From an uncultured Veillonellaceae bacterium (GTDB taxonomy: Bacteria > Bacillota > Negativicutes > UBA1444), in assembly GCA_964521625.1 (NCBI GenBank), contig CAZFSM010000003.1, forward strand, positions 143,801-207,800: a stretch of 64,000 bases of DNA, written 5' to 3'. The translations under genes and the position numbers were made by a program. The notes beneath the pieces were generated by a model. It did no database searches and was not told the origin of the DNA. It saw only the letters and a program-made list of their open reading frames with translations. Positions 6,484 through 35,498 of this stretch are shown piece by piece (position 1 is the first letter of the stretch; each line of letters opens with the position of its first letter).

Positions 6484-9400
6484 CTAATTTACTCTTTGTT
6501 TTTTCAGCCATTGGAGAAACTGATCCTCCGGCAACGGTCTGCTGATCCAATAACCCTGAACCATGTCGCAATGGCGCCCGGCAAGCACCTGCCACTGCGA
6601 TTCGGTTTCCACGCCTTCAGCCACAACCTGTAGTCCCAGTTCGTGGGCCAGTTCGATTATCGCGCCCAGAATTGCAGTACTGCCGTCCTCACCGGTTGCG
6701 TCATCGATAAACGACTTGTCGATTTTTACCACCTGGATTGGCAACCGCTTCAGATAAGTCAGCGATGAATAGCCAGTGCCGAAATCATCAAGAGCCACCC
6801 TAACTCCTAGCTCACGCAATTCCTGCAATTTTCTCGTACACAACTCAAAAGATTCCACCAGAGAGGTTTCCGTGATTTCCAGCTCCAATGCCTGCGGTGA
6901 TAGCTGTGTTTCCTGCAGCACGCAACGGACTTGGTCAACAAAGTTGTCACGAACCAATTGACGGGCCGATATATTTACTGAAACAAACAAGACATCCTCT
7001 TCCTGTCGCCGCAACGATCTGGCAAAAACACAGGCTGAACGCAACACCCACTCGCCAATCGGGATTATCAAACCGGTCTCCTCGGTCAGTGGAATGAAGT
7101 CCGCCGGTGACACCCGCCCCTGCTCAGGATTATCCCAACGCAACAAAGCTTCCATACCAACAACCTGTTCAGTTGTATTGACAATTGGTTGGTAATGCAA
7201 TGCAAATTCTTTATTTTCCAATGCAAACCGCAAATTATGCTCCATTTGCAGCTTGCGCAATGTGGTTTCGTGCATGGCCGCATCATAATACTTCCATGCA
7301 TTTTTGCCAGTTCGTTTTACGGCATGCATGGCGGTATCGGCACAACGCAGCAGATCGCCCGGCAGTATGCCATTGTCCGGATAACGGGAAATGCCGATAC
7401 TGGCAGAAAGCAAAAATCTCTGCCCACATTCCTCAAATGGCTGAGCGAACAAAGCGAGAATCCGCTCGGCAAAACTATCCACCTGCAAGTCCCGTTTAAG
7501 CAGAATGACGAATTCGTCACCGCCAAGCCTTGCCAACACCGAGGCACTGTCCACCACACCTGTCAGCCGTCGGCTCACTTCTTTCAAAAGTTCATCGCCG
7601 CAGGCGTGTCCGAACGAATCATTGATGTTCTTGAAGTTATCGATATTCACAAACAACACGGATCCGCCCCGCATCAGGGAGACACTATCCTGCAGCTGTT
7701 CTTGCAACGCTTCGAGAAACCGGGTCCGGTTGGCTAAGCCAGTCAAGGCATCGCTGTAGGCCAGCTGACGGATTTTGGCTTCGCGCAATTTCATTTCGGT
7801 AACATCCGTCAACGAACCTAGAATACGGATTGGCTGCTGCTGCTCGTCCAGCACCGCCTTGCCACGACTCAATACCCAAAAATAGCTTCCCTCTTTTGTT
7901 TTTAGCCGATACTCGGTCATGTAATATTCGGCGTGACCGGAAAGGTGATCCTCCAAGGCCTTGAACCGCTGCTCCCGGTCTTCCGGGTGAACCACAGCAT
8001 TAAAACTGGCAATGTTGATTCCCTCACTGCCAAATGAGAAACCCAGTCGCTCTTCCCAACGGTCAGACCATTGGACTTTTCCGGTCCGCAAATCCCAGTC
8101 ATAAATTACGTCGTTGACCGCATCCAGTGCCAGACGAAAACGCGCTTCACTTGCGGCCAGTTTCTGCTGGCTCTCTTCCAGTTCCGTTACTTTTTGCCGC
8201 AATGCCGCTTCCGAAACCGACAACTTCGAATACAACACCGATAATTCCTCGGTATGAGCCTGCAACTGTTCATGCTGATCCTGCAGTCGTTGATGCGCCG
8301 CCTCCAACGCCCGGTTAGTCGCTCGTTTTTCCGTCAAATCACGGACCATGATCATAACTTCGTCTTTTGTCATCGGCACGACCCGGCTCTCACGAAACGC
8401 GATTTCACCATTAATTTCAAGTTCGTATTCGAGAGTTTGCATTGACTGCGTTGCCAACGCGGCCTCGATCAACTGCATAAACCGATCGGCCAGTTCGGCG
8501 GGAATTGACTGGTAAATGCTCTGCCCGGTCCGCTCCGCATGAAGATTGAATTTGTCTGTTCCCTGCGGGATATAAATATCCCGATATATTCCTTCCCGGC
8601 TAATTCGCACGATCATATCCGGCGCTGACGTAAGCAGCGCTTTTGCCTTAGCCTCACTGGACAGCAACTCTTCGCCCTGGGCAATCAGTTCTTCATTTTG
8701 CGCTGTCAGTTGTTCATAGGCCGCCTGCAGTTCCATGTTCTGGTCGGCGATGGTCGCCGTCGCTGCAGCAATCCTAAGCTGCAGCCAACGCACGAAAAGG
8801 AATGCAAGCAACATAATCAGACCGGCAATACCCATCCCGACCGCTGCATACAGCGTCAGTTCCTGACGCGTCAAACCCCAAAGTGTCTGCGTTTCTCCCA
8901 GCCACTTATCTTTGATTCTCTGCAGTTCGCCGCTATGCTGCAACCGCCCCAGCGCCTGGTCGAGTATCCTCATCAGTTCCGGTTCGTCGGGATGGACCGC
9001 TATGGCAAACGGATTAATAAACAAACTTTCCCCATTGGTCTTAACCAATTTTTCCAAATCAATCTGCCGCAGCCAATACTTGCCAGCATAATAGTTAGCC
9101 GCCGCCGCATCGACTTTGCGATCTGCCACGGCCTGCAGCAATTCACGCTGGCTGTCAAACTCATAAAAGTTCAGATTCGGTCTGACCTTGCGGAGTAATT
9201 GACCCGCCACCTCGCCTTTTTGAACACCCACCCGCCTGTCGCGTAAATCATCGAAACCAATGATGTGAAAACTATCCACTGGAACAAATAAAACAACCCG
9301 GTCTTCAAAATAAGGCCGGGTAAATAAAAATTCCTGTTTGCGTTCCTCAGTAACGTTCATCCCTGGAATAATCTCGACCTGCCGGTTACGCAGCTTTTTC

Positions 9401-18661: not shown

Positions 18662-18676
18662 TCATCTCCCTTCTCC

Positions 18677-18721
18677 CTCTTCCCCTTCCCCCTCTTCCCC
18701 TTCCCCCTCTTCCCCTTCCCC
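18677..18721. repeat. perfect 3 x 15-nt tandem repeat (CTCTTCCCCTTCCCC), pyrimidine-only on the plus strand
   Basis: Seen directly in sequence between the glnK stop and its terminator. Confidence 0.7.
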
Positions 18722-18727
18722 CCACAA

Positions 18728-27769: not shown

Positions 27770-28615
27770 ATGTCCACTGAAGACAATGCGGTGTTGGAAA
27801 AATTTCTGCATGTGATGCCTCTATTGGGTGCTATGTTCTCGGCCGACATCGGTGTTGCCGTCACTGATCGGGAAAAATATCTGCTATACAAACCCGGGCG
27901 GCAATTGGACCTGAAGATCAGCGCCGGCACCCCACTTAAGGCCGGCACGGCCATCGTTCGCGCCATGAATGAAAATCGCCGCGTATCCGTTCGGGGAGAC
28001 AAAGCTACGTTTGGTTTACCGTACATTGCCACCGCAGTGCCAATTCAGGATAGCAATGGATCGGTCGTCGGCGGCGCCGTCATCATTGAATCGGTCGACC
28101 AGCAGGACAAGCTGACAGAAATGGCGGTCAAACTGGCTGACAGCACCAACACCCTCGCCAGCACCTCGCAGGAAATTTCTGCCCAGACTGAAGAAATCAG
28201 TGCGGTAAGTCGCGCTATGTCATTAGCTGCCAGTCAATCGCAAAACCGCCTGCAAGAAACCGATCAGGTGGTCGGATTGATCAAAGCCATCGCCGGTCAG
28301 ACCAATATGCTTGGCTTAAACGCCGCGATCGAAGCGGCCCGCGTCGGCGAGCAGGGGCGGGGTTTTGGCGTTGTTGCCGAAGAAATCCGCAAATTGGCCG
28401 CCTCGACGGGAGATTCCATCAAGCAAATTGAAGCGACCCTGCGGACGATTCGTGATGACAGCCGGAAGAACTACGAGCAGGCTTGCCGAATCGATGAAGT
28501 CATGCCGCAAATCGCGCAAGCGATCACGCAAGTGGCCGGCACAGTGCAGGAAGTTAATGAGATGGCCCGCAATCTGAATCAAATGGCCGCCGATCTGACT
28601 AAAAACCAGGCTTAA
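27770..28615 (+). CDS. soluble chemoreceptor-like protein: PAS-like N-terminal sensor + methyl-accepting chemotaxis (MCP) signalling domain (paralog 1)
   Basis: Highly conserved MCP core [34 protein letters not shown]. No TM segments. AGGGAGGAG RBS. Confidence 0.8.
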
Positions 28616-30002
28616 AACCACGGCAGAGAAAAACCAGTATACTGCGTTGAATATATCGATCTGAATACGATAATGGCGGCAAAGGACTGACTTCGACAAA
28701 AAGTTGCTCCAATGCCGCTTTGTGTTGTTCATCGCCAAAAAACACCGCGTCCTCACCGGCCTGAAGCGGCGATTCGCCTCGCCAATAATCATACTGGGAA
28801 AACCGCGAAGGTGTGAGCACCTGGACCATCGGCCGCCCCGGCAAATAGTACCAGGCGAGCGACGCCAATTTGTAGTCGGCCGCCAACACGTGTTTCGCAG
28901 TCAAGAGCTCCGGTCCGGCCGATCGGAACATCACATCATAGCCTAGCACCTGTCGTTTCATCACAAGTTGCGGCGGCAGAAAGCTAAAAGCCTCCGGTAT
29001 CTTTAGCAGAAGGATCAAGACAGCGCCCACGACAATCCCCGCGCGGTAAATATTTCTATACCGGAGGCACTCAAGCCACCGGGCAATCAAAACGATGCCT
29101 GTGACGTAGGCGGGCGCCGCCCAGTTGCCTTCCGGTCGCTTAAACAAGGCCGAATAGGCGAAAAACACCAATACAGTCAGGCAGGGCCAGAGTAAAAAAA
29201 CCTGCTTTTCATCAGCCAGAATTTTTCTCCAGGAACGAAACAAAACATACAACAATACTAAGAAAAACAGCGGATTCAGGGCGACAGTCTGAACGCCCAG
29301 ATATTCGAAGAAACTGCCCGGATTCAAAGTCTGCGCTGCCGCAAAGCCATGATTCAATTGAAATTGAAAAGAAACCCATTCATGGCGGTAATTCCAGAGG
29401 AGAACCGGCGAAAACACCAGCAAAGCCGTTCCGATCGAAAACCACACTGCTCGGTTGCCCAGCTGCCGACGATAAGAGGAAAACAGCAAAAAACCCAGTA
29501 CACCCGGCAATAGCAACACCGCCGTATATTTCGACAGCAACGCAAATCCGGCAGTCACGCCCGCCAGATAGTAATAACCCCGCCGATCACCAAACAACGT
29601 CCTCTGCAGGAACCAGAGCGTCGCCGTCCAGCCCAGGATCAGCGGCGCATCCGGCGTAGCCAGGCTAAACCCGAGCTGGGCCAGTGGCGACAATAAAAAA
29701 ATCAGCAAGGCACGATCTGCCACAGTAGCATTGAACAAATCTTTGGCCATCTGCCAAATCCCGAATCCCGTCAAGGTCATGCAGCCTAGCGGAACCAAAC
29801 GGATCAGCCATTCGGCATCGCCAAACACAGTCACCAACTTGATCAACCAGGCAATCATCGGCGGATGATCAAAATAAGAAAGCTGCAGATGCTTTGACCA
29901 GACCCAGTAGTAGGCCTCGTCAAAATGCAGCGGCAGCGTCATGTTATAAATCAGGTTAAATAGCACGACAAAGGCAAAAAAAGCAGCCGTAGACCGCTTC
30001 AT
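28599..30002 (-). CDS. glycosyltransferase family 39 (ArnT/PMT-like, GT-C) membrane protein
   Basis: Polytopic, with N-terminal DEAYYW-type loop ([27 protein letters not shown]) typical of GT39/83. Start [13 protein letters not shown]-coupled to the upstream GT2. Confidence 0.75.
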
Positions 30003-30724
30003 GAGGAAATGCTGGAGTCCAGGCGAAGCTTCCACACCATCAGCACCGCTTCAAGAAATATCTTGCGCGACATCTTGGATTTTCCTGCCGTTCGGTCTTC
30101 AAAAACGATCGGTGTCTCGAAGACGTGAAACCCTTGGCAACTGGCCCGATAGGTCATTTCGATCTGAAACGAATAGCCGTTGGATTTAATCGAATCCAAA
30201 TCGATGGCTTCCAGCACTTCCCGCCGGAAACACTTAAACCCGCCGGTCAAATCACGCAGAGAAAGTCCCAGGATTGTCCGGGCATACAAACTGCCGCCGC
30301 GACTGATAAATTTGCGCAGCAAACCCCAGTTTTTCACGCCGCCGCCTGCCACGTAACGACTGCCCAGCACCAGATCATGCGTCTTGATCGCAGCCAAAAA
30401 GTCCGGCAGATATTTCGGGTCATGCGAAAAATCGGCATCCATTTCAAAAATATAATCATAATCGCGAGCCAGCGCCCATTTGAAACCGGCGATATAGGCA
30501 GTGCCCAATCCCAGCTTACCGGCCCGTTTCAGCAAAAACAGCTTTCCTGGATACGTAGACTCCATCAAGCTTTCGACGATCTCATAGGTTCGGTCCGGCG
30601 AATTGTCATCGACAACCAGCACATGCGCCGCCGGGTCGGTCTGCGTGATCAGCTCCAATAATTTTTCGATATTGTCCCGCTCATTATATGTCGGAATAAT
30701 GATCAGATGTCCGGCCACGGTCAC
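29999..30724 (-). CDS. polyprenol-phosphate sugar synthase (GT2, Dpm1/Ppm1/ArnC-like), catalytic domain only
   Basis: IIPTYNE, VVDDNSPD and DADFSHDP motifs of GT2 polyprenyl-phosphate glycosyltransferases; 241 aa. Confidence 0.8.
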   Translation of the reverse strand: MTVAGHLIIIPTYNERDNIEKLLELITQTDPAAHVLVVDDNSPDRTYEIVESLMESTYPGKLFLLKRAGKLGLGTAYIAGFKWALARDYDYIFEMDADFSHDPKYLPDFLAAIKTHDLVLGSRYVAGGGVKNWGLLRKFISRGGSLYARTILGLSLRDLTGGFKCFRREVLEAIDLDSIKSNGYSFQIEMTYRASCQGFHVFETPIVFEDRTAGKSKMSRKIFLEAVLMVWKLRLDSSISS

Positions 30725-31182
30725 CCTTCCCTTCCATTCGTTTCGCCCGGTTCAGCCGTATCCGTCTTTTCGCCGAACGTGAACCGGGAATTCATAATGA
30801 AGTTTAAAATACTGACCAAGCCGATTGAAAACAGCTGGGCCAGCGTCTTATCCATCGCCAGCGCCTCGACAAACAGTCGCAACAATAACAGGTTCACGCC
30901 AAGATTCAGTACACTGACCGCCAAAAAGCGGAAATACTTGTTGCGGCGGCTACGAAAAGCCGCCTGTCCTTTGAAAGTCCAACGAAAATTCCAATAAAAA
31001 TTATTGGTCACGGCAAATAAAAAAGATACCACCGCCGCCATTAGATAATATAAACCGCTGTTTACCGCCAGCGCATAAACAGCCATGTTGACCAAAGTTC
31101 CTGACAACCCGACAACTGAAAACTTGATAAAACGTTTCACCCAATAATACCCTGCCTTGTTTTTTGACAAATTCTTTTTCAA
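30721..31182 (-). CDS. GtrA-family small membrane protein (putative polyprenyl-phosphate-sugar flippase)
   Basis: FIKFSVVGLSGTLVNM and 4 TM. Overlaps the GT2 start. Confidence 0.7.
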   Translation of the reverse strand: MKKNLSKNKAGYYWVKRFIKFSVVGLSGTLVNMAVYALAVNSGLYYLMAAVVSFLFAVTNNFYWNFRWTFKGQAAFRSRRNKYFRFLAVSVLNLGVNLLLLRLFVEALAMDKTLAQLFSIGLVSILNFIMNSRFTFGEKTDTAEPGETNGREG

Positions 31183-31255: not shown

Positions 31256-31284
31256 TTGATAATATTTCTCCACAGAAGTATAAT
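31256..31284 (+). promoter_or_regulatory. sigma-A promoter: TTGATA, 17-nt spacer, TATAAT
   Basis: Consensus elements about 160 nt upstream of the TM1266-like gene. Confidence 0.5.
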
Positions 31285-31374
31285 GAGATATGATTCAACG
31301 CCTGCGGAACAGGGTGTAAACCTGACGCCAAGGGATGAGCACAGTGATGCATTTTTGTGTCATTCGGTTCATCC

Positions 31375-31406
31375 GCTCTGTGCGTCTGGCACAGAGCTTT
31401 ATTTTT
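31375..31406 (+). terminator. intrinsic terminator in the 5' leader of the hydF-containing operon (putative attenuator or riboswitch expression platform)
   Basis: Perfect 9-bp stem GCTCTGTGC-gtctg-GCACAGAGC followed by TTTATTTTT. Upstream GCACAG (about 31337) could form an alternative antiterminator with the left arm. Confidence 0.5.
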
Positions 31407-31440
31407 GCCCTGAACTATATTTTTATAACGGAGGTCACTC

Positions 31441-31695
31441 ATGAATCAACGACTTGGCTTCATCGGCATCGTGATCGAGGATCCGGACAAAGCGCCGGAA
31501 ATCAACAATATTTTAAGCCGTCACGGCCAGATCATCGCCGGCCGGATGGGAATTCCCCGCATCCACCACAATGAAGCCGGCATTTCTGTCATCACGCTCA
31601 TCGTACAAGGCACGACTGATGAACTCGGCGCGCTCACCGGCCAACTCGGCAATATCAGCGGTGTACAGGTCCGCTCGGCATTGAGCAGCAAATAA
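31441..31695 (+). CDS. TM1266-like small ACT-type protein (putative iron-only hydrogenase system regulator family)
   Basis: 84 aa with MNQRLGFIGIVIEDPDKAPEINNILSRHGQIIAGRMGIP. Genomic association with hydF. GGAGG RBS. Confidence 0.5.
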   Translation: MNQRLGFIGIVIEDPDKAPEINNILSRHGQIIAGRMGIPRIHHNEAGISVITLIVQGTTDELGALTGQLGNISGVQVRSALSSK

Positions 31696-31717
31696 GATGA
31701 CTGTGCAGGAGGGTGCC

Positions 31718-33148
31718 ATGTACCGAATGGAAACCGACTTTCTCGGTGAGAAACCAGTCCCCGCCGTCGCCTATTACGGTATCCATACTGTCCGCGCGCT
31801 GGAAAATTTCGCGGTGTCCCGGCAACTTGTCCATCCCGAACTGATCCGCGCCATCGCCACCGTCAAGCAGGCGGCGGCGGAAATGAACCTGCATCTGGGT
31901 CTGCTCGACCCCCAGGTCGGTTCGGCGATATTTCAGGCAGCCGGCGAAATAGCCGAAGGCCGCTTTGCTGACCAGTTTCCGCTTGACGCGTTGCAGGGAG
32001 GCGCCGGAACCTCAACCAACATGAATGTAAATGAAGTCATCGCCAACCGCGCCTGCGAACTGCTCGGCAGCCAGAAGGGCGACTACGCCGTGGTGCATCC
32101 ATTGGACCAGGTCAATCTGTCGCAATCCACCAACGACGTCTATCCCACCGCGCTGCGGATAGCCGCCATCCGGTTGCTGCAGGGCCTGGCCGAAGCCTGC
32201 GCCCAGTTGCAGGGTGCGCTGCAAAAAAAAGAGGCCGAATTTGCCGGTGTGCTTAAACTAGGCCGCACTGAGATGCAAGATGCCGTGCCGGTCACGCTGG
32301 GCCAGGAGTTTTCCGCCTGGGCCGAAGCGATCGCCCGCGACCGCTGGCGCCTCTATAAAGTCGAAGAACGGCTGCGCGAAGTCAACCTCGGCGGCACGGC
32401 AGTCGGCACCGGTCTTAATGCAGAACGAAAATATGTATTTGGTGTCGTAGAACGGCTGCGCTCGCTGACCGGCATCGGCCTGGCCCGCGACGAAAACATG
32501 ATCGACACGACCCAGAACGCTGACGTTTTTGTCGAAGTATCCGGTCTGCTCAAGGCCTGCGCTACAACATTGATCAAGATCAGCAACGACCTGCGGCTGC
32601 TTTCCTCTGGTCCGCGCGGCGGTTTCGGCGAGATCCGCCTACCCGATTTGCAAGCCGGTTCCTCGATCATGCCAGGCAAGGTCAATCCAGTCATGCCGGA
32701 AATGGTGGCCCAGATCGCCTACCAGACCATCGCCCGCGATCTGGCGATCACTCTGGCCGCACAAGGCGGTCAGCTCGAACTGAACGCCTTCCTGCCGCTC
32801 ATCGCCGCCAATCTATTGCCGGCGATGGAAGAGCTGACCAATGCGATGCGATTGTTCGCCGAACGCTGCATTAACGGCATTGAAGCCAATAACGAACGTT
32901 GCCGGTTTCACCTGGAAAACAGCGTGGCACTGATCACGGCGCTGGCGCCGCTAATCGGTTACGACCGGGCGGCGAGCCTCGCCAAACAGGCTCTGCAGGC
33001 CGACTCACCCGTCAAACAGTCTCTGCTTGATTCTGGCCTGTTTACAACTGAAGAACTGGATAATTTGCTGCGACCGGAAGCCCTGACCCGCCCGGGGATG
33101 GTAAAACGACCGACCGCCGCCAAACCGAAGGAGGCCGCCCATGAATGA
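31718..33148 (+). CDS. aspartate ammonia-lyase family (class II fumarase/aspartase superfamily) protein
   Basis: GSSIMPGKVNP signature loop. QGGAGTSTNMN is aspartase-like rather than the fumarase C QTGSGTQ. Start MYRMETDFLGEK. Confidence 0.8.
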   Translation: MYRMETDFLGEKPVPAVAYYGIHTVRALENFAVSRQLVHPELIRAIATVKQAAAEMNLHLGLLDPQVGSAIFQAAGEIAEGRFADQFPLDALQGGAGTSTNMNVNEVIANRACELLGSQKGDYAVVHPLDQVNLSQSTNDVYPTALRIAAIRLLQGLAEACAQLQGALQKKEAEFAGVLKLGRTEMQDAVPVTLGQEFSAWAEAIARDRWRLYKVEERLREVNLGGTAVGTGLNAERKYVFGVVERLRSLTGIGLARDENMIDTTQNADVFVEVSGLLKACATTLIKISNDLRLLSSGPRGGFGEIRLPDLQAGSSIMPGKVNPVMPEMVAQIAYQTIARDLAITLAAQGGQLELNAFLPLIAANLLPAMEELTNAMRLFAERCINGIEANNERCRFHLENSVALITALAPLIGYDRAASLAKQALQADSPVKQSLLDSGLFTTEELDNLLRPEALTRPGMVKRPTAAKPKEAAHE

Positions 33149-34373
33149 AACACCTCGTGGCAACCGCCTGCATATCGCACTGTTCGGTCGCCGCAACGCC
33201 GGCAAGTCCAGCCTGATCAACGCTCTGACCAATCAGTCGCTGGCGATCGTCTCCGCCGTTGCCGGCACCACCACCGACCCTGTCTACAAATCGATGGAAA
33301 TCCTGCCGCTCGGCCCGGTGGTCGTGATCGACACCGCAGGGCTGGATGACGTCGGCGAACTGGGAATGCTGCGCATCGAAAAATCGCTGGAAGTACTGCG
33401 CAAAACCGATCTGGTTTTGCTTGTCGTCGACGCGACCGCCGGCATCGCCGGGCCGGAACGCGAACTGGCCGGCAAATGCCGGGCGCAAAATATCCCGTTC
33501 ATCCTGGTATTCAATAAATCTGATTTACAAACAGCGACGCCGGATGTGCTGGAAAGTTTCAAAACCGAGCTGGCGGCAGCCGCCGCCGTGACAGTCAGCG
33601 CCGAGCTGCGACAAGGCATCGGCGAACTGAAAATCGCCATGGTCCGTCATGCCCCGGCCCGCTGGGATAACCAGACCATCGTCGGCGATCTGCTGCAGCC
33701 CGGCGACATTGCCGTACTGTGCGTCCCGATCGACCTGGCCGCGCCGGCTGGCCGGCTGATTCTGCCGCAGGTCCAGATGATCCGCGACATTCTCGACCAC
33801 GACGCGCTGGCTTACACGGTAAAAGAACGCGAGTTGAAAGAATGCATCGCCAGTCTGAATCGCAAACCCAAGATCGTGATCACCGACTCCCAGGTCTTTC
33901 TCAAAGCCGACGCCGACACGCCGCCGGATGTACTGCTCACTTCGTTTTCGATCCTGTTCGCCCGCTACAAGGGCGACCTGGAAACGATGGTGCGCGGCGC
34001 CCGGGCGATCGACCACCTAAAGCCGGGCGACAAAGTGTTGATCAGCGAATCCTGCACGCATCACCGGGTGGAAGACGATATCGGCACGGTCAAAATCCCC
34101 CGCTGGCTCAGGCAACATGTCGGCGGCGATCTGGTCGTCGATCATTCCAGCGGTCTCAGTTTCCCGAAAAACCTCAGCGAATACAAACTGGTGCTGCATT
34201 GCGGCGCCTGCATGACCAACCGGCGCGAAATGCTGGCCCGCATCGTCGAGGTGCAGCAGGCTGGCGTTCCCATCGTCAACTACGGCGTGGCGATTGCCGC
34301 GCTGATGGGTATCCTGCGCCGCGCTTTGTCACCATTCCCGCTGTTGCAGGACATTCTCGACGAAGAAGAATAA
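33141..34373 (+). CDS. hydF: [FeFe]-hydrogenase H-cluster maturation GTPase HydF
   Basis: N-terminal GTPase G1 GRRNAGKSSLINAL. C-terminal CTHH...HCGAC, matching the CxHx(46-53)HCxxC FeS motif of HydF. 410 aa. Confidence 0.85.
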   Translation: MNETPRGNRLHIALFGRRNAGKSSLINALTNQSLAIVSAVAGTTTDPVYKSMEILPLGPVVVIDTAGLDDVGELGMLRIEKSLEVLRKTDLVLLVVDATAGIAGPERELAGKCRAQNIPFILVFNKSDLQTATPDVLESFKTELAAAAAVTVSAELRQGIGELKIAMVRHAPARWDNQTIVGDLLQPGDIAVLCVPIDLAAPAGRLILPQVQMIRDILDHDALAYTVKERELKECIASLNRKPKIVITDSQVFLKADADTPPDVLLTSFSILFARYKGDLETMVRGARAIDHLKPGDKVLISESCTHHRVEDDIGTVKIPRWLRQHVGGDLVVDHSSGLSFPKNLSEYKLVLHCGACMTNRREMLARIVEVQQAGVPIVNYGVAIAALMGILRRALSPFPLLQDILDEEE

Positions 34374-34388
34374 CCGGTAAAACAAAAA

Positions 34389-34434
34389 AGAACGACCTTG
34401 AAGCAATCGCCAGCAACAAGGTCGTCCTTTTTTC
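34389..34434. terminator. bidirectional hairpin between convergent hydF and the HD-GYP regulator
   Basis: AAAAAAGAACGACCTTG...CAAGGTCGTCCTTTTTT. Confidence 0.5.
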
Positions 34435-35498
34435 TATTCATACGCTGCAATGATTTTTTCCTCAACCAACAGGAAGGCATCTACAATTCGCGAATCAAAC
34501 TGAGTCCCGCTACCATCCAGGATGATCTTTATCGCGGCATCATGGTTGACGGCATCTTTGTAGCAACGTTTTGATCGCAATGCGTCATACACATCCGCCA
34601 CTGCCATGACACGGGCAGATAGCGGGATTTTTTCGCCGCTCAGTCCATCGGGATAGCCCGAACCGTCCCATTTTTCATGATGTGATCTGGCAATCTCTAT
34701 GCCCAGTGAAATAAAAGCGTTGTGTGGATAGCGGGATTGAACCATTGCCAAGGTTTTGGCCCCGATCAATGTATGCTGCTTCATGATTTCAAATTCCTCC
34801 GTTGAAAGCTTGCCGGGCTTGAGCAAAATTGCGTCGGCAATTCCTACCTTGCCCACATCATGCAACGGACTTGCCTGTTCCATGTATTTGACAAATTGCA
34901 TATCGACCGGATAGTTTTCGTCGTTCTGACCGTACAATGCCTCCGCGAGCAGCTTGCAACAAGACTGTACCCGGTCGAGATGCTGTCCGGTTGCATCGTC
35001 TCTGGACTCAGCCAATTTGGCCAGAGCAAAGATCGTACCCATCTGGGCTTCGGTGATTTCACGCACCTGCTCCTGCACCATGGCCTCCAGGTACTGTTGA
35101 TAACGATAGAGTTTTAAGTGAGTTTCGACACGCGCCTCGACTTCGATCAGTTCAAATGGTTTTGTCACGTAGTCAACGCCACCGGCTGCAAAGGCTTTCA
35201 CTTTGTCAGCCGCATCATCCATTGCGCTGAGAAAAATCACCGGAATAGACCGCCATTCCGGAGTTTTTTTTATGTGCGCACAAACTTCCAGCCCGCTCAT
35301 CCCTGGCATATTGATATCCAACAATATTAAATCCGGCTTACTGATCCGCATAATCTGCAACGCCAGGTCACCGCTCAGTGCAATTCTTACATTGTAGCCC
35401 TTGCCCCAAAACATGCGCGCCAAAACTTCCACATTTATCGGTACGTCATCTACGATCAATAAAGTTGGCAGCGTCTTGCTCGACGGTTCATTTAACAT
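34434..35498 (-). CDS. response regulator with HD-GYP c-di-GMP phosphodiesterase domain
   Basis: REC domain (LIVDD...DINMPGMSG) plus HD and HHEKWDGSGYP motifs. Confidence 0.85.
   Translation of the reverse strand: MLNEPSSKTLPTLLIVDDVPINVEVLARMFWGKGYNVRIALSGDLALQIMRISKPDLILLDINMPGMSGLEVCAHIKKTPEWRSIPVIFLSAMDDAADKVKAFAAGGVDYVTKPFELIEVEARVETHLKLYRYQQYLEAMVQEQVREITEAQMGTIFALAKLAESRDDATGQHLDRVQSCCKLLAEALYGQNDENYPVDMQFVKYMEQASPLHDVGKVGIADAILLKPGKLSTEEFEIMKQHTLIGAKTLAMVQSRYPHNAFISLGIEIARSHHEKWDGSGYPDGLSGEKIPLSARVMAVADVYDALRSKRCYKDAVNHDAAIKIILDGSGTQFDSRIVDAFLLVEEKIIAAYE

Follow-up and report, generated by a model that had tools for sequence, protein, structure and literature searches.

The 64,000-nt stretch of DNA analysed here (contig CAZFSM010000003.1 of assembly GCA_964521625.1, forward strand, positions 143,801 to 207,800; hereafter the window) comes from an uncultured Veillonellaceae bacterium and carries an operon of three genes. 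They encode a small TM1266-like protein with an ACT-like fold, an aspartase-like lyase (aspA), and HydF, which acts in maturation of the H-cluster of [FeFe]-hydrogenase. We found that the leader of this operon contains a 43-nt hairpin module followed by an intrinsic terminator, and that this combination is, as far as we could find, a widespread and apparently undescribed attenuator motif linked to the TM1266 family. It is highly probable that the leader controls the operon by attenuation. Our preferred reading, to which we give a probability of about one half, is that of an autoregulatory attenuation cassette, in which the TM1266-like protein would bind the hairpin with a logic like that of PyrR, TRAP, and HutP. 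The elements of the leader and the gene behind it are as follows, in positions of the window.

31256-31284, plus strand: sigma-70/sigma-A promoter, with TTGATA (31256-31261), a 17-nt spacer, and TATAAT (31279-31284)
31296-31338, plus strand: sensor hairpin module, 43 nt, consensus yCCUG[A/C]G..AAGG-loop-CCUGA..CAAGGG
31324-31386, plus strand: predicted antiterminator, in which the 3' strand of the module (31324-31334) would pair with 31374-31386
31333-31374, plus strand: hairpin 2, the linker between module and terminator, present in the minimum free energy (MFE) folds
31375-31406, plus strand: intrinsic terminator (attenuator), a 9-bp stem GCUCUGUGC/GCACAGAGC with a 5-nt loop, then UUUAUUUUU
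31430-31434, plus strand: ribosome-binding site GGAGG of the TM1266-like gene, read directly from the sequence
31441-31695, plus strand: first gene of the operon, TM1266-like ACT-fold protein of 84 aa (PF21699, TIGR03959)

The promoter and the terminator at 31375-31406, both of which an earlier note made from the letters of this DNA had pointed out, were located by scans. The promoter matches 11 of the 12 consensus positions, and from it we infer a transcription start near 31291. The terminator scan gave a stem spanning 31375-31397, followed by TTTATTTTT. The leader folds more stably than its shuffles do (z = -4.2). The leader is conserved in orthologous loci: when it was aligned with its counterparts in the closest relatives and in further members of the clade, the segment 31301-31338 was almost invariant, and the surrounding intergenic DNA had diverged. 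A 9-codon open reading frame (ORF) at 31290-31319 was considered as a leader peptide and rejected, as it is not conserved in relatives. The promoter hexamers and much of the spacer are kept in the related loci L003, L004, L083-L085, and L166 (L numbers denote loci compared with the window). As a separate observation, the spacer region (TTGATAATwTTTCTCCrCAG...TATAAT) is conserved among the window and these loci, and nearby intergenic DNA is not; the conserved spacer could represent an operator that overlaps the promoter and adds a further layer of control at the DNA level.

The module forms one nested hairpin. In the window, helix P1 pairs 31301-31303 with 31332-31334 and includes an invariant U-G wobble (31303/31332), P1b pairs 31306-31307 with 31328-31329, and P2 pairs 31310-31313 with 31321-31324; the internal loop between P1 and P1b is GC opposite AA. 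In its general form, the module has a P1 of 3-4 bp, a 2x2 internal loop of G[A/C] opposite AA, a P1b of 2 bp, a second internal loop, and a P2 that consists of an AGG/CCU core and a variable tip. The module segment alone folds to this P1/P1b/P2 structure at -11.3 kcal/mol. About 18 of the 43 positions are nearly invariant, and many of these lie within the internal loops. Both strands read 5'-CCUG-(5-7 nt)-AAGG-3', forming a pseudo-dyad that would suit a symmetric oligomer.

Module-like sequence was found upstream of TM1266-like genes in Desulfotomaculia, Syntrophomonadaceae, Halanaerobiales, and Clostridia. We built a covariance model from 18 hand-picked copies (R1), retrained it (R2), and made a third model without any sequence of the window's clade (R3). 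The searches covered HydF-anchored loci and, independently of HydF, 80 metagenome loci that were fetched through the TM1266 protein. R1 gave 57 matches in the 80 TM1266-anchored loci and 23 in the HydF-anchored loci plus the window. The corresponding numbers with R2 were 65 and 26, and every one of these matches was on the sense strand (65/65 in the TM1266-anchored loci, binomial p = 5e-20; 26/26 in the HydF-anchored loci plus the window). Nearly all matches lie 60-250 nt upstream of the TM1266-like start, and about 75 distinct module loci were obtained across Bacillota. The copy at 31296-31338 is the only match in the window and scored 41.2 bits with R1, 37.0 bits with R2, and 30.5 bits with R3 (E = 1.4e-4). 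R3 also found the module in 11 of the 11 clade sources that have a full leader (there are 12 sources; L170 is truncated on the upstream side). Tandem copies of the module, with starts about 45-53 nt apart, were seen in about 13 of 67 leaders.

The helices covary. Among 75 distinct copies, 82.4% of cells were paired (the results were similar on 69 matches, 67 of them distinct), and cells changed on both sides numbered 100, against 22.6 +/- 7.8 in shuffles. The covariation score was 0.405, against 0.177 for shuffled alignments and at most 0.162 for slid registers; the alternative P1 register, slid by -1, reached this value of 0.162 and was rejected. At alignment pair 6-64, 58 copies have C-G and 13 have U-A. 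Both pairs of P1b vary more widely: 11-57 is G-C in 41 copies, U-A in 14, G-U in 9, and C-G in 4, and 12-56 is A-U in 30, G-C in 23, G-U in 9, U-A in 6, and C-G in 5. Because of the G-U pairs and the invariant U-G wobble, the structure is placed at the RNA level. A DNA-level operator as an explanation of the module was ruled out by the G-U pairs, the strict strand specificity, and the coupling to a terminator. The module has the conserved, structured sensor domain with covariation that is expected of a riboswitch-type element.

Rfam 15 (4227 models) gave no match for the leader at gathering score in the window and 11 loci. With relaxed thresholds, short stretches of the window, L145, and L028 (E <= 10) and five loci searched over their whole length (E <= 5) yielded only noise. 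By inspection, the leader is unlike glycine, molybdenum/tungsten cofactor (Moco/Wco), T-box, and K-turn elements. In the literature we found no description of such a leader element, of a hyd riboswitch, or of a function of TM1266.

A strong intrinsic terminator stands within 7-80 nt downstream of about 58 of the 69 module copies. In the window, the partner of the module 3' strand in the predicted antiterminator, 31374-31386, comprises the terminator 5' arm plus its loop, so that the pairing would extend hairpin 2 downwards and would exclude both P1/P1b of the module and the terminator. This antiterminator is the MFE fold when the terminator 3' arm is withheld (-39.9 kcal/mol), and the same fold is predicted in L003, L004, L083, L084, L086, L166, L168, and L170. 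Its pair 31330-31379 is A-U in the window, G-C in L083, and G-U in L084, and the terminator partner at 31393 changes along with it. When the complete leader is folded, several relatives adopt precisely the arrangement of module, hairpin 2, and terminator. Hairpin 2, whose base shares G31333-G31334 with module helix P1 and which would form the top of the antiterminator in the read-through fold, recurs in L003, L004, L083-L086, and L166-L169, where its sequence differs and shows compensatory changes.

Judging from complementarity, module-plus-terminator leaders of different clades would use different antiterminator solutions. Complementarity of 9-12 bp between module and terminator arm is found in L013, L110, L145, and L162. 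In L013, L019, L023, L035, L110, and L102 the 5' half of the module (UGCGAAnAAGGG) is complementary to CCCUUUUUUCGC; in L145, L100, and L162 the 5' strand of P1/P1b pairs with the terminator 5' arm over 8-9 bp; and in L142, L161, and L005 the 3' strand of the module is complementary to the terminator 5' arm. The duplex between module and terminator 5' arm was better than that of shuffled modules at p <= 0.05 in 15 of 58 leaders (mean z = -0.95). In folds without the terminator 3' arm, 7.6 nt of the terminator arm were paired to the module, against 5.9 nt after shuffling, a measure that discriminates only weakly. A platform of mutually exclusive terminator and antiterminator, as in riboswitch-type control, is present at the level of prediction.

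When the surroundings of the module were compared, it tracked the TM1266 gene and not the hyd genes. Among HydF-anchored loci, the module was present in 18 of 22 with a TM1266 gene and in 1 of 58 without one (Fisher p = 3.7e-13), the exception being L047. In L060 the module heads an aspA-hydF-TM1266 operon in which TM1266 is the last gene. In five loci, a second module with a terminator stands directly 3' of the TM1266 gene, before hydG. These second copies are located as follows.

L005, 2442-2483: second module
L142, 5471-5512: second module
L156, 5266-5310: second module
L160, 5305-5346: second module
L161, 5357-5398: second module

The module and TM1266 also head operons that are free of hyd genes. 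In three loci these operons contain an SsuA/NMT1-like ATP-binding cassette (ABC) importer, with the TM1266 gene at the following positions.

L090, 5001: TM1266 gene of an ABC-importer locus
L094, 5001: TM1266 gene of an ABC-importer locus
L146, 3752: TM1266 gene of an ABC-importer locus

In others (L111-L113 and L164/L165), they contain a single S-component of an energy-coupling factor (ECF) transporter of an uncharacterised family. Where the same S-component family occurs without TM1266, in Halothermothrix orenii (L163), the module is absent. Searches with the ECF S-component and the ABC binding protein for the substrates of the importers gave generic family matches only.

Several minor observations concern the same loci. 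In L164, structural genes of [FeFe]-hydrogenase are found about 3.6 kb upstream of the pair of module-TM1266 and S-component (7608-8534). Two relatives of the window's clade, L166 (1-2635) and L168 (1-2480), have an NMT1-like ABC transporter operon that is divergent from the cassette and about 1.4 kb upstream. It is similar to the transporter type co-regulated with TM1266 in other loci, and its position may be a coincidence. Tandem pairs of TM1266-like genes are found in L138 (255-1244), L109 (274-794), and L096 (4417-4988), and in L138 each gene of the pair has its own upstream module (255-296 and 771-812).

The TM1266-like ORF of the window scored 91.2 bits against PF21699 (cutoff 27) and 95.3 bits against TIGR03959 (cutoff 60.8). 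The family comprises 617 clusters at 50% identity, and almost all members are stand-alone proteins of 80-130 aa with no second domain. No DNA-binding or other nucleic-acid-binding domain was found in the family. A single-domain protein without a DNA-binding domain that is called a regulator must act via RNA or via another protein. A profile search of PDB with the TM1266-like protein gave 2NZC (E = 3.5e-22), the only solved relative of TM1266, which is annotated as a hypothetical protein, and weakly the C-terminal domain of NikR (E = 0.43). With the NikR C-terminal domain and ACT regulators, the TM1266-like protein shares a small beta-alpha-beta-beta-alpha-beta regulatory fold; unlike NikR, it lacks a ribbon-helix-helix domain and conserved His/Cys metal ligands. 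Domains of the NikR-C and ACT type bind small ligands and oligomerise. The invariant residues of the TM1266 family are R4, N22, a G-R-M-G-x-P motif, D60, and several glycines, and no Cys or His that could be a metal ligand is conserved in the family alignment. As a side observation, TM1266 proteins of the window's clade have a 3-residue insertion, R-I-H (31558-31566, residues 40-42), just after GRMGxP, which about 90% of the others lack.

From comparison and folding, we propose that transcription would start near 31291 and that the first 45 nt would fold as the module, in the order P1, internal loop, P1b, internal loop, and P2. While the module is held folded, its 3' strand would be unavailable, hairpin 2 and the terminator would form, and most transcripts would stop short of the TM1266-like gene. 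If nothing holds the module, 31324-31334 would pair with the terminator 5' arm, and the resulting long antiterminator would allow read-through into TM1266-aspA-hydF. The holding factor would most probably be the TM1266-like protein of the operon itself, probably as an oligomer and probably gated by a small ligand at the ACT-like domain. Such an autoregulated cassette would set the levels of HydF and of the ammonia-supplying aspartase. We favour the TM1266-like protein as the binder because the RNA and the gene move together whatever the cargo, because hyd operons without a TM1266 gene lack the module, because copies of the attenuator can stand on both sides of the gene, a layout shared with the pyr operon, and because no other route of regulation is open to the protein.

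The model resembles known cases of protein-dependent attenuation, in that the regulator gene lies inside the controlled operon and the leader contains a site whose occupation is predicted to favour the terminator. In Bacillus subtilis, pyr attenuators flank pyrR in the pyr operon. Some TM1266 loci likewise have further copies of the site and terminator behind the regulator gene, as in pyrR-pyrP-pyrB. As with PyrR of the pyr operon, TRAP, whose attenuation acts at the trp leader (PMC3064811), and HutP of hut, the gene of the TM1266-like protein comes first in the operon that the protein would control, the occupied leader site would prevent the antiterminator and lead to the intrinsic terminator, and a small ligand is expected to gate the binding. 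In contrast to these regulators, the fold of the TM1266-like protein is ACT/NikR-C-like, and the PDB profile search detected no homology to any of the three. The RNA site also differs from theirs, being a nested hairpin with two purine-rich internal loops, and so does the regulon, which consists of H-cluster maturation and importers. With somewhat less assurance than the cassette itself, we suggest that TM1266-like proteins may form a new ACT-fold family of attenuation proteins that bind RNA under the control of a ligand. The protein and its cognate hairpin might then be a portable cassette for H-cluster maturase genes and two uncharacterised importer families, pointing to a small molecule that is sensed and imported in [FeFe]-hydrogenase maturation.

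Several points weigh against control by the TM1266-like protein. No experiment or precedent for RNA binding by TM1266 or ACT-like proteins was found in the literature, the protein of the window is not basic, and a comparison of TM1266 between loci that have the module and loci that lack it showed identical conserved residues, with no discriminating ones found. About one quarter of TM1266 loci have no recognisable module. Conversely, L047 (Halanaerobacter) has a module and terminator before hydG and no TM1266 gene within 12 kb; an 80-aa ORF of this locus was examined as a hidden TM1266 and rejected, with an hhalign probability of 3% and no Pfam or NCBIfam match. In the window's own clade, the simple-duplex score between module and terminator arm was no better than that of shuffles. 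The pairing counts given above are inflated, as the alignments (A4, A6) were fitted to the model, and all loci were sampled via HydF, TM1266, or the S-component, which biases ascertainment against copies elsewhere in the genomes. Furthermore, a tight tie to one gene family is also typical of the crcB, ykkC, and yybP riboswitches.

The main rival, a serious one though less probable than the preferred reading, is that the module is the aptamer of a new OFF riboswitch for a small molecule or ion, in which ligand binding would cause termination. The TM1266-like protein would then be the product of the gene most often controlled, perhaps one that binds or carries the ligand, and hyd maturases and importers would belong to the same regulon. 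The module is similar to small terminator-coupled OFF riboswitches (glycine, guanidine-II, NAD+-I, and tetrahydrofolate (THF)-II) in being a compact hairpin with internal loops and covarying helices, and its near-invariant loop positions and invariant U-G wobble would suit an aptamer. Terminator platforms that vary by clade, tandem copies in some leaders (tandem riboswitches have been surveyed; PMC9481103), and co-controlled importers, a classic logic of riboswitch regulons, are shared features as well. L047, which has no nearby TM1266 gene, and L060, where TM1266 comes last, also count in its favour. Unlike these riboswitches, the module is linked to one small protein gene, not to a pathway, and matches no Rfam 15 model. 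The single module among the 58 TM1266-free hyd operons, and the presence of TM1266 in every module-bearing non-hyd operon seen, argue against an RNA that acts alone. Identical attenuators flanking an 80-aa gene are also hard to explain in this way, and no single metabolite is evident that should shut off importers and H-cluster maturases alike. The earlier note had suggested riboswitch or attenuation control of H-cluster maturation through the leader; the idea of a leader RNA with a terminator is upheld, and between a riboswitch and a protein-binding site the evidence leans to the latter, with TM1266 as the protein.

It is unlikely that another trans-acting factor from elsewhere in the genome, an RNA-binding protein or a small RNA, binds the module and that TM1266 co-occurs with it only as a member of the same regulon. 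Such a factor would account equally for the structure, placement, and terminator coupling, and for L047. No candidate, however, is consistently near the module, as the flanking genes differ completely between loci, and module and TM1266 move together, as one cassette, from one neighbourhood to another. Targets of ANTAR proteins (PMC3369931) are comparable in being short leader elements that precede and compete with a terminator. An ANTAR-like fold of two small hairpins was ruled out by the P1b pairs 11-57 and 12-56, whose covariation makes one nested hairpin. The loops are not hexaloops with A at position 1 and G at position 4, binding here would favour termination and not antitermination, and no ANTAR protein gene is nearby.

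It is still less likely that the leader terminator is constitutive or leaky, without regulation, and that the conserved hairpin is an element of RNA stability or processing. In its favour, regulation is here a prediction from sequence. Against it, the combination of module and terminator is kept across Negativicutes, Desulfotomaculia, Syntrophomonadia, Halanaerobiia, and Clostridia with clade-specific antiterminators, and the upstream gene is on the opposite strand, so the terminator does not serve it.

The least probable reading is that of the earlier note, in which GCACAG (31340-31345) and the left arm of the terminator form the antiterminator of an unspecified riboswitch or attenuator: the 6-bp complementarity to 31378-31383 is present in the window, but the hexamer lies in the 5' arm of hairpin 2, is TCAAAC in the nearest relatives (L003 and L004), which keep the terminator, differs again in L083-L086, and is not used in the fold without the terminator 3' arm, where 31324-31334 takes the place. 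The conserved sensor element is 31301-31334, and the antiterminator is predicted to form between 31324-31334 and 31374-31386.

We found nothing in the literature on the regulation of the costly, oxygen-sensitive machinery of H-cluster maturation. The sole candidate regulator is TM1266, a family whose annotation has for nearly two decades gone no further than that of putative iron-only hydrogenase system regulators. A conserved switch tied to TM1266 provides a concrete and testable set, namely a 43-nt RNA, an 84-aa protein, and a defined terminator, and makes both the function of TM1266 and the control of H-cluster maturation questions that can be tested directly. If the protein binds the RNA, it would add a new fold to the few bacterial attenuation proteins; if the RNA alone binds a ligand, it would be a new riboswitch class. 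Either way, the co-controlled importers may bring to light an input that is missing from the present picture of [FeFe]-hydrogenase maturation, which would be relevant to the heterologous production of hydrogenases.

The remaining parts of the operon are as follows.

31697-33148, plus strand: aspartate ammonia-lyase homolog with Lyase_1 and FumaraseC_C domains, likely start 31718
33141-34373, plus strand: HydF, H-cluster maturation GTPase and scaffold (TIGR03918)
about 34392-34433, bidirectional: terminator hairpin at the end of the operon, ACGACCTTG...CAAGGTCGT with flanking A-run and T-run

The three genes form a single operon, with the TM1266-like gene first and the aspartase-like gene second, as had been claimed. 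They are tightly packed, and the start of hydF overlaps the end of aspA by 8 nt. The longest aspartase ORF begins at ATG 31697, 1 base past the TM1266 stop; the true start is probably ATG 31718, because it is preceded by a GGAGGG ribosome-binding site and gene callers give a protein of 476 aa. The aspartase-like ORF scored 672 bits against NF008909 (cutoff 510) and remained below the cutoff of the aspA equivalog model TIGR00839 (574.6 against 681.2 bits). Its SS-loop, GSSIMPGKVN at residue 321, fits the pattern GSSxMPxKxN. By these matches it is a member of the aspartase subfamily, with aspartate as the putative substrate.

The identification of HydF in the earlier note, made from the G1 and CxH...HCxxC motifs, was borne out. 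The protein scored 569 bits against the equivalog model TIGR03918 (cutoff 325) and has the GTPase motifs G1 (GRRNAGKS, residues 16-23), DTAG (at 64), and NKSD (at 125) within a MMR_HSR1 domain, as well as the dimerisation and tetramerisation domains (PF18128 and PF18133). The Cys and His residues of the FeS-binding motif are present as C305-T-H307 and H353-C-G-A-C357. HydF is 96% identical to that of the metagenome-assembled genome JAHDPL01, and the window was placed in Sporomusaceae.

Neither the gene cluster nor the idea about aspartase is new. Both the adjacency of aspA and hydF and the proposed role of aspartase as the nitrogen source of the dithiomethylamine bridge, which the earlier note had brought up, were already published (Pagnier et al. 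2024, PMC11736057), with in-vitro maturation supported by aspartate and E. coli AspA. In the survey of that paper, an ammonia-lyase gene (aspA, ilvA, or sdaA) was located within +/-20 ORFs of 79% of authentic hydF genes, and aspA was the one most often close to hydF. In agreement, aspA adjoins hydF in most of our 80 HydF-anchored loci. A term search of PMC11736057 found no mention of TM1266 or of regulation, and one of the Pelobacter genome paper (PMC3543383) found nothing on a leader RNA. The cluster of the window has the same gene content, adjacency, and proposed ammonium-donor role as the hyd clusters with aspA beside hydF in these two papers, and differs from the published maturation clusters in lacking hydE and hydG.

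The usual operon in relatives is TM1266-aspA-hydF-hydE-hydG, often right behind hydA, and the TM1266-like gene adjoins hyd genes in the window and in most loci. The window's clade retains only TM1266, aspA, and hydF, in varied neighbourhoods. A tblastn search of the whole window with HydE, HydG, and HydA from related loci found none of the three genes, in line with the earlier note, which had stated that hydE, hydG, and hydrogenase structural genes are absent there.

The neighbourhood of the TM1266-aspA-hydF unit differs among related genomes. In the window, a divergent trio of genes lies upstream of the leader (28599-31182, minus strand), coding for a GtrA-like protein, a family-2 glycosyltransferase, and a PMT_2-like protein of the ArnT type. 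The same trio is found beside the cassette in L167 (1120-3658) and not in L166, L168, or L169. At the other end, the hairpin at 34392-34433 sits between hydF and a convergent gene for an HD-GYP response regulator (34434-35498, minus strand), and looks to be shared by both. Far from the operon, an intergenic tandem repeat at 18668-18722 consists of 3.7 copies of a 15-nt C/T-rich unit, CCCTTCCCCCTCTTC, with 97% matches.

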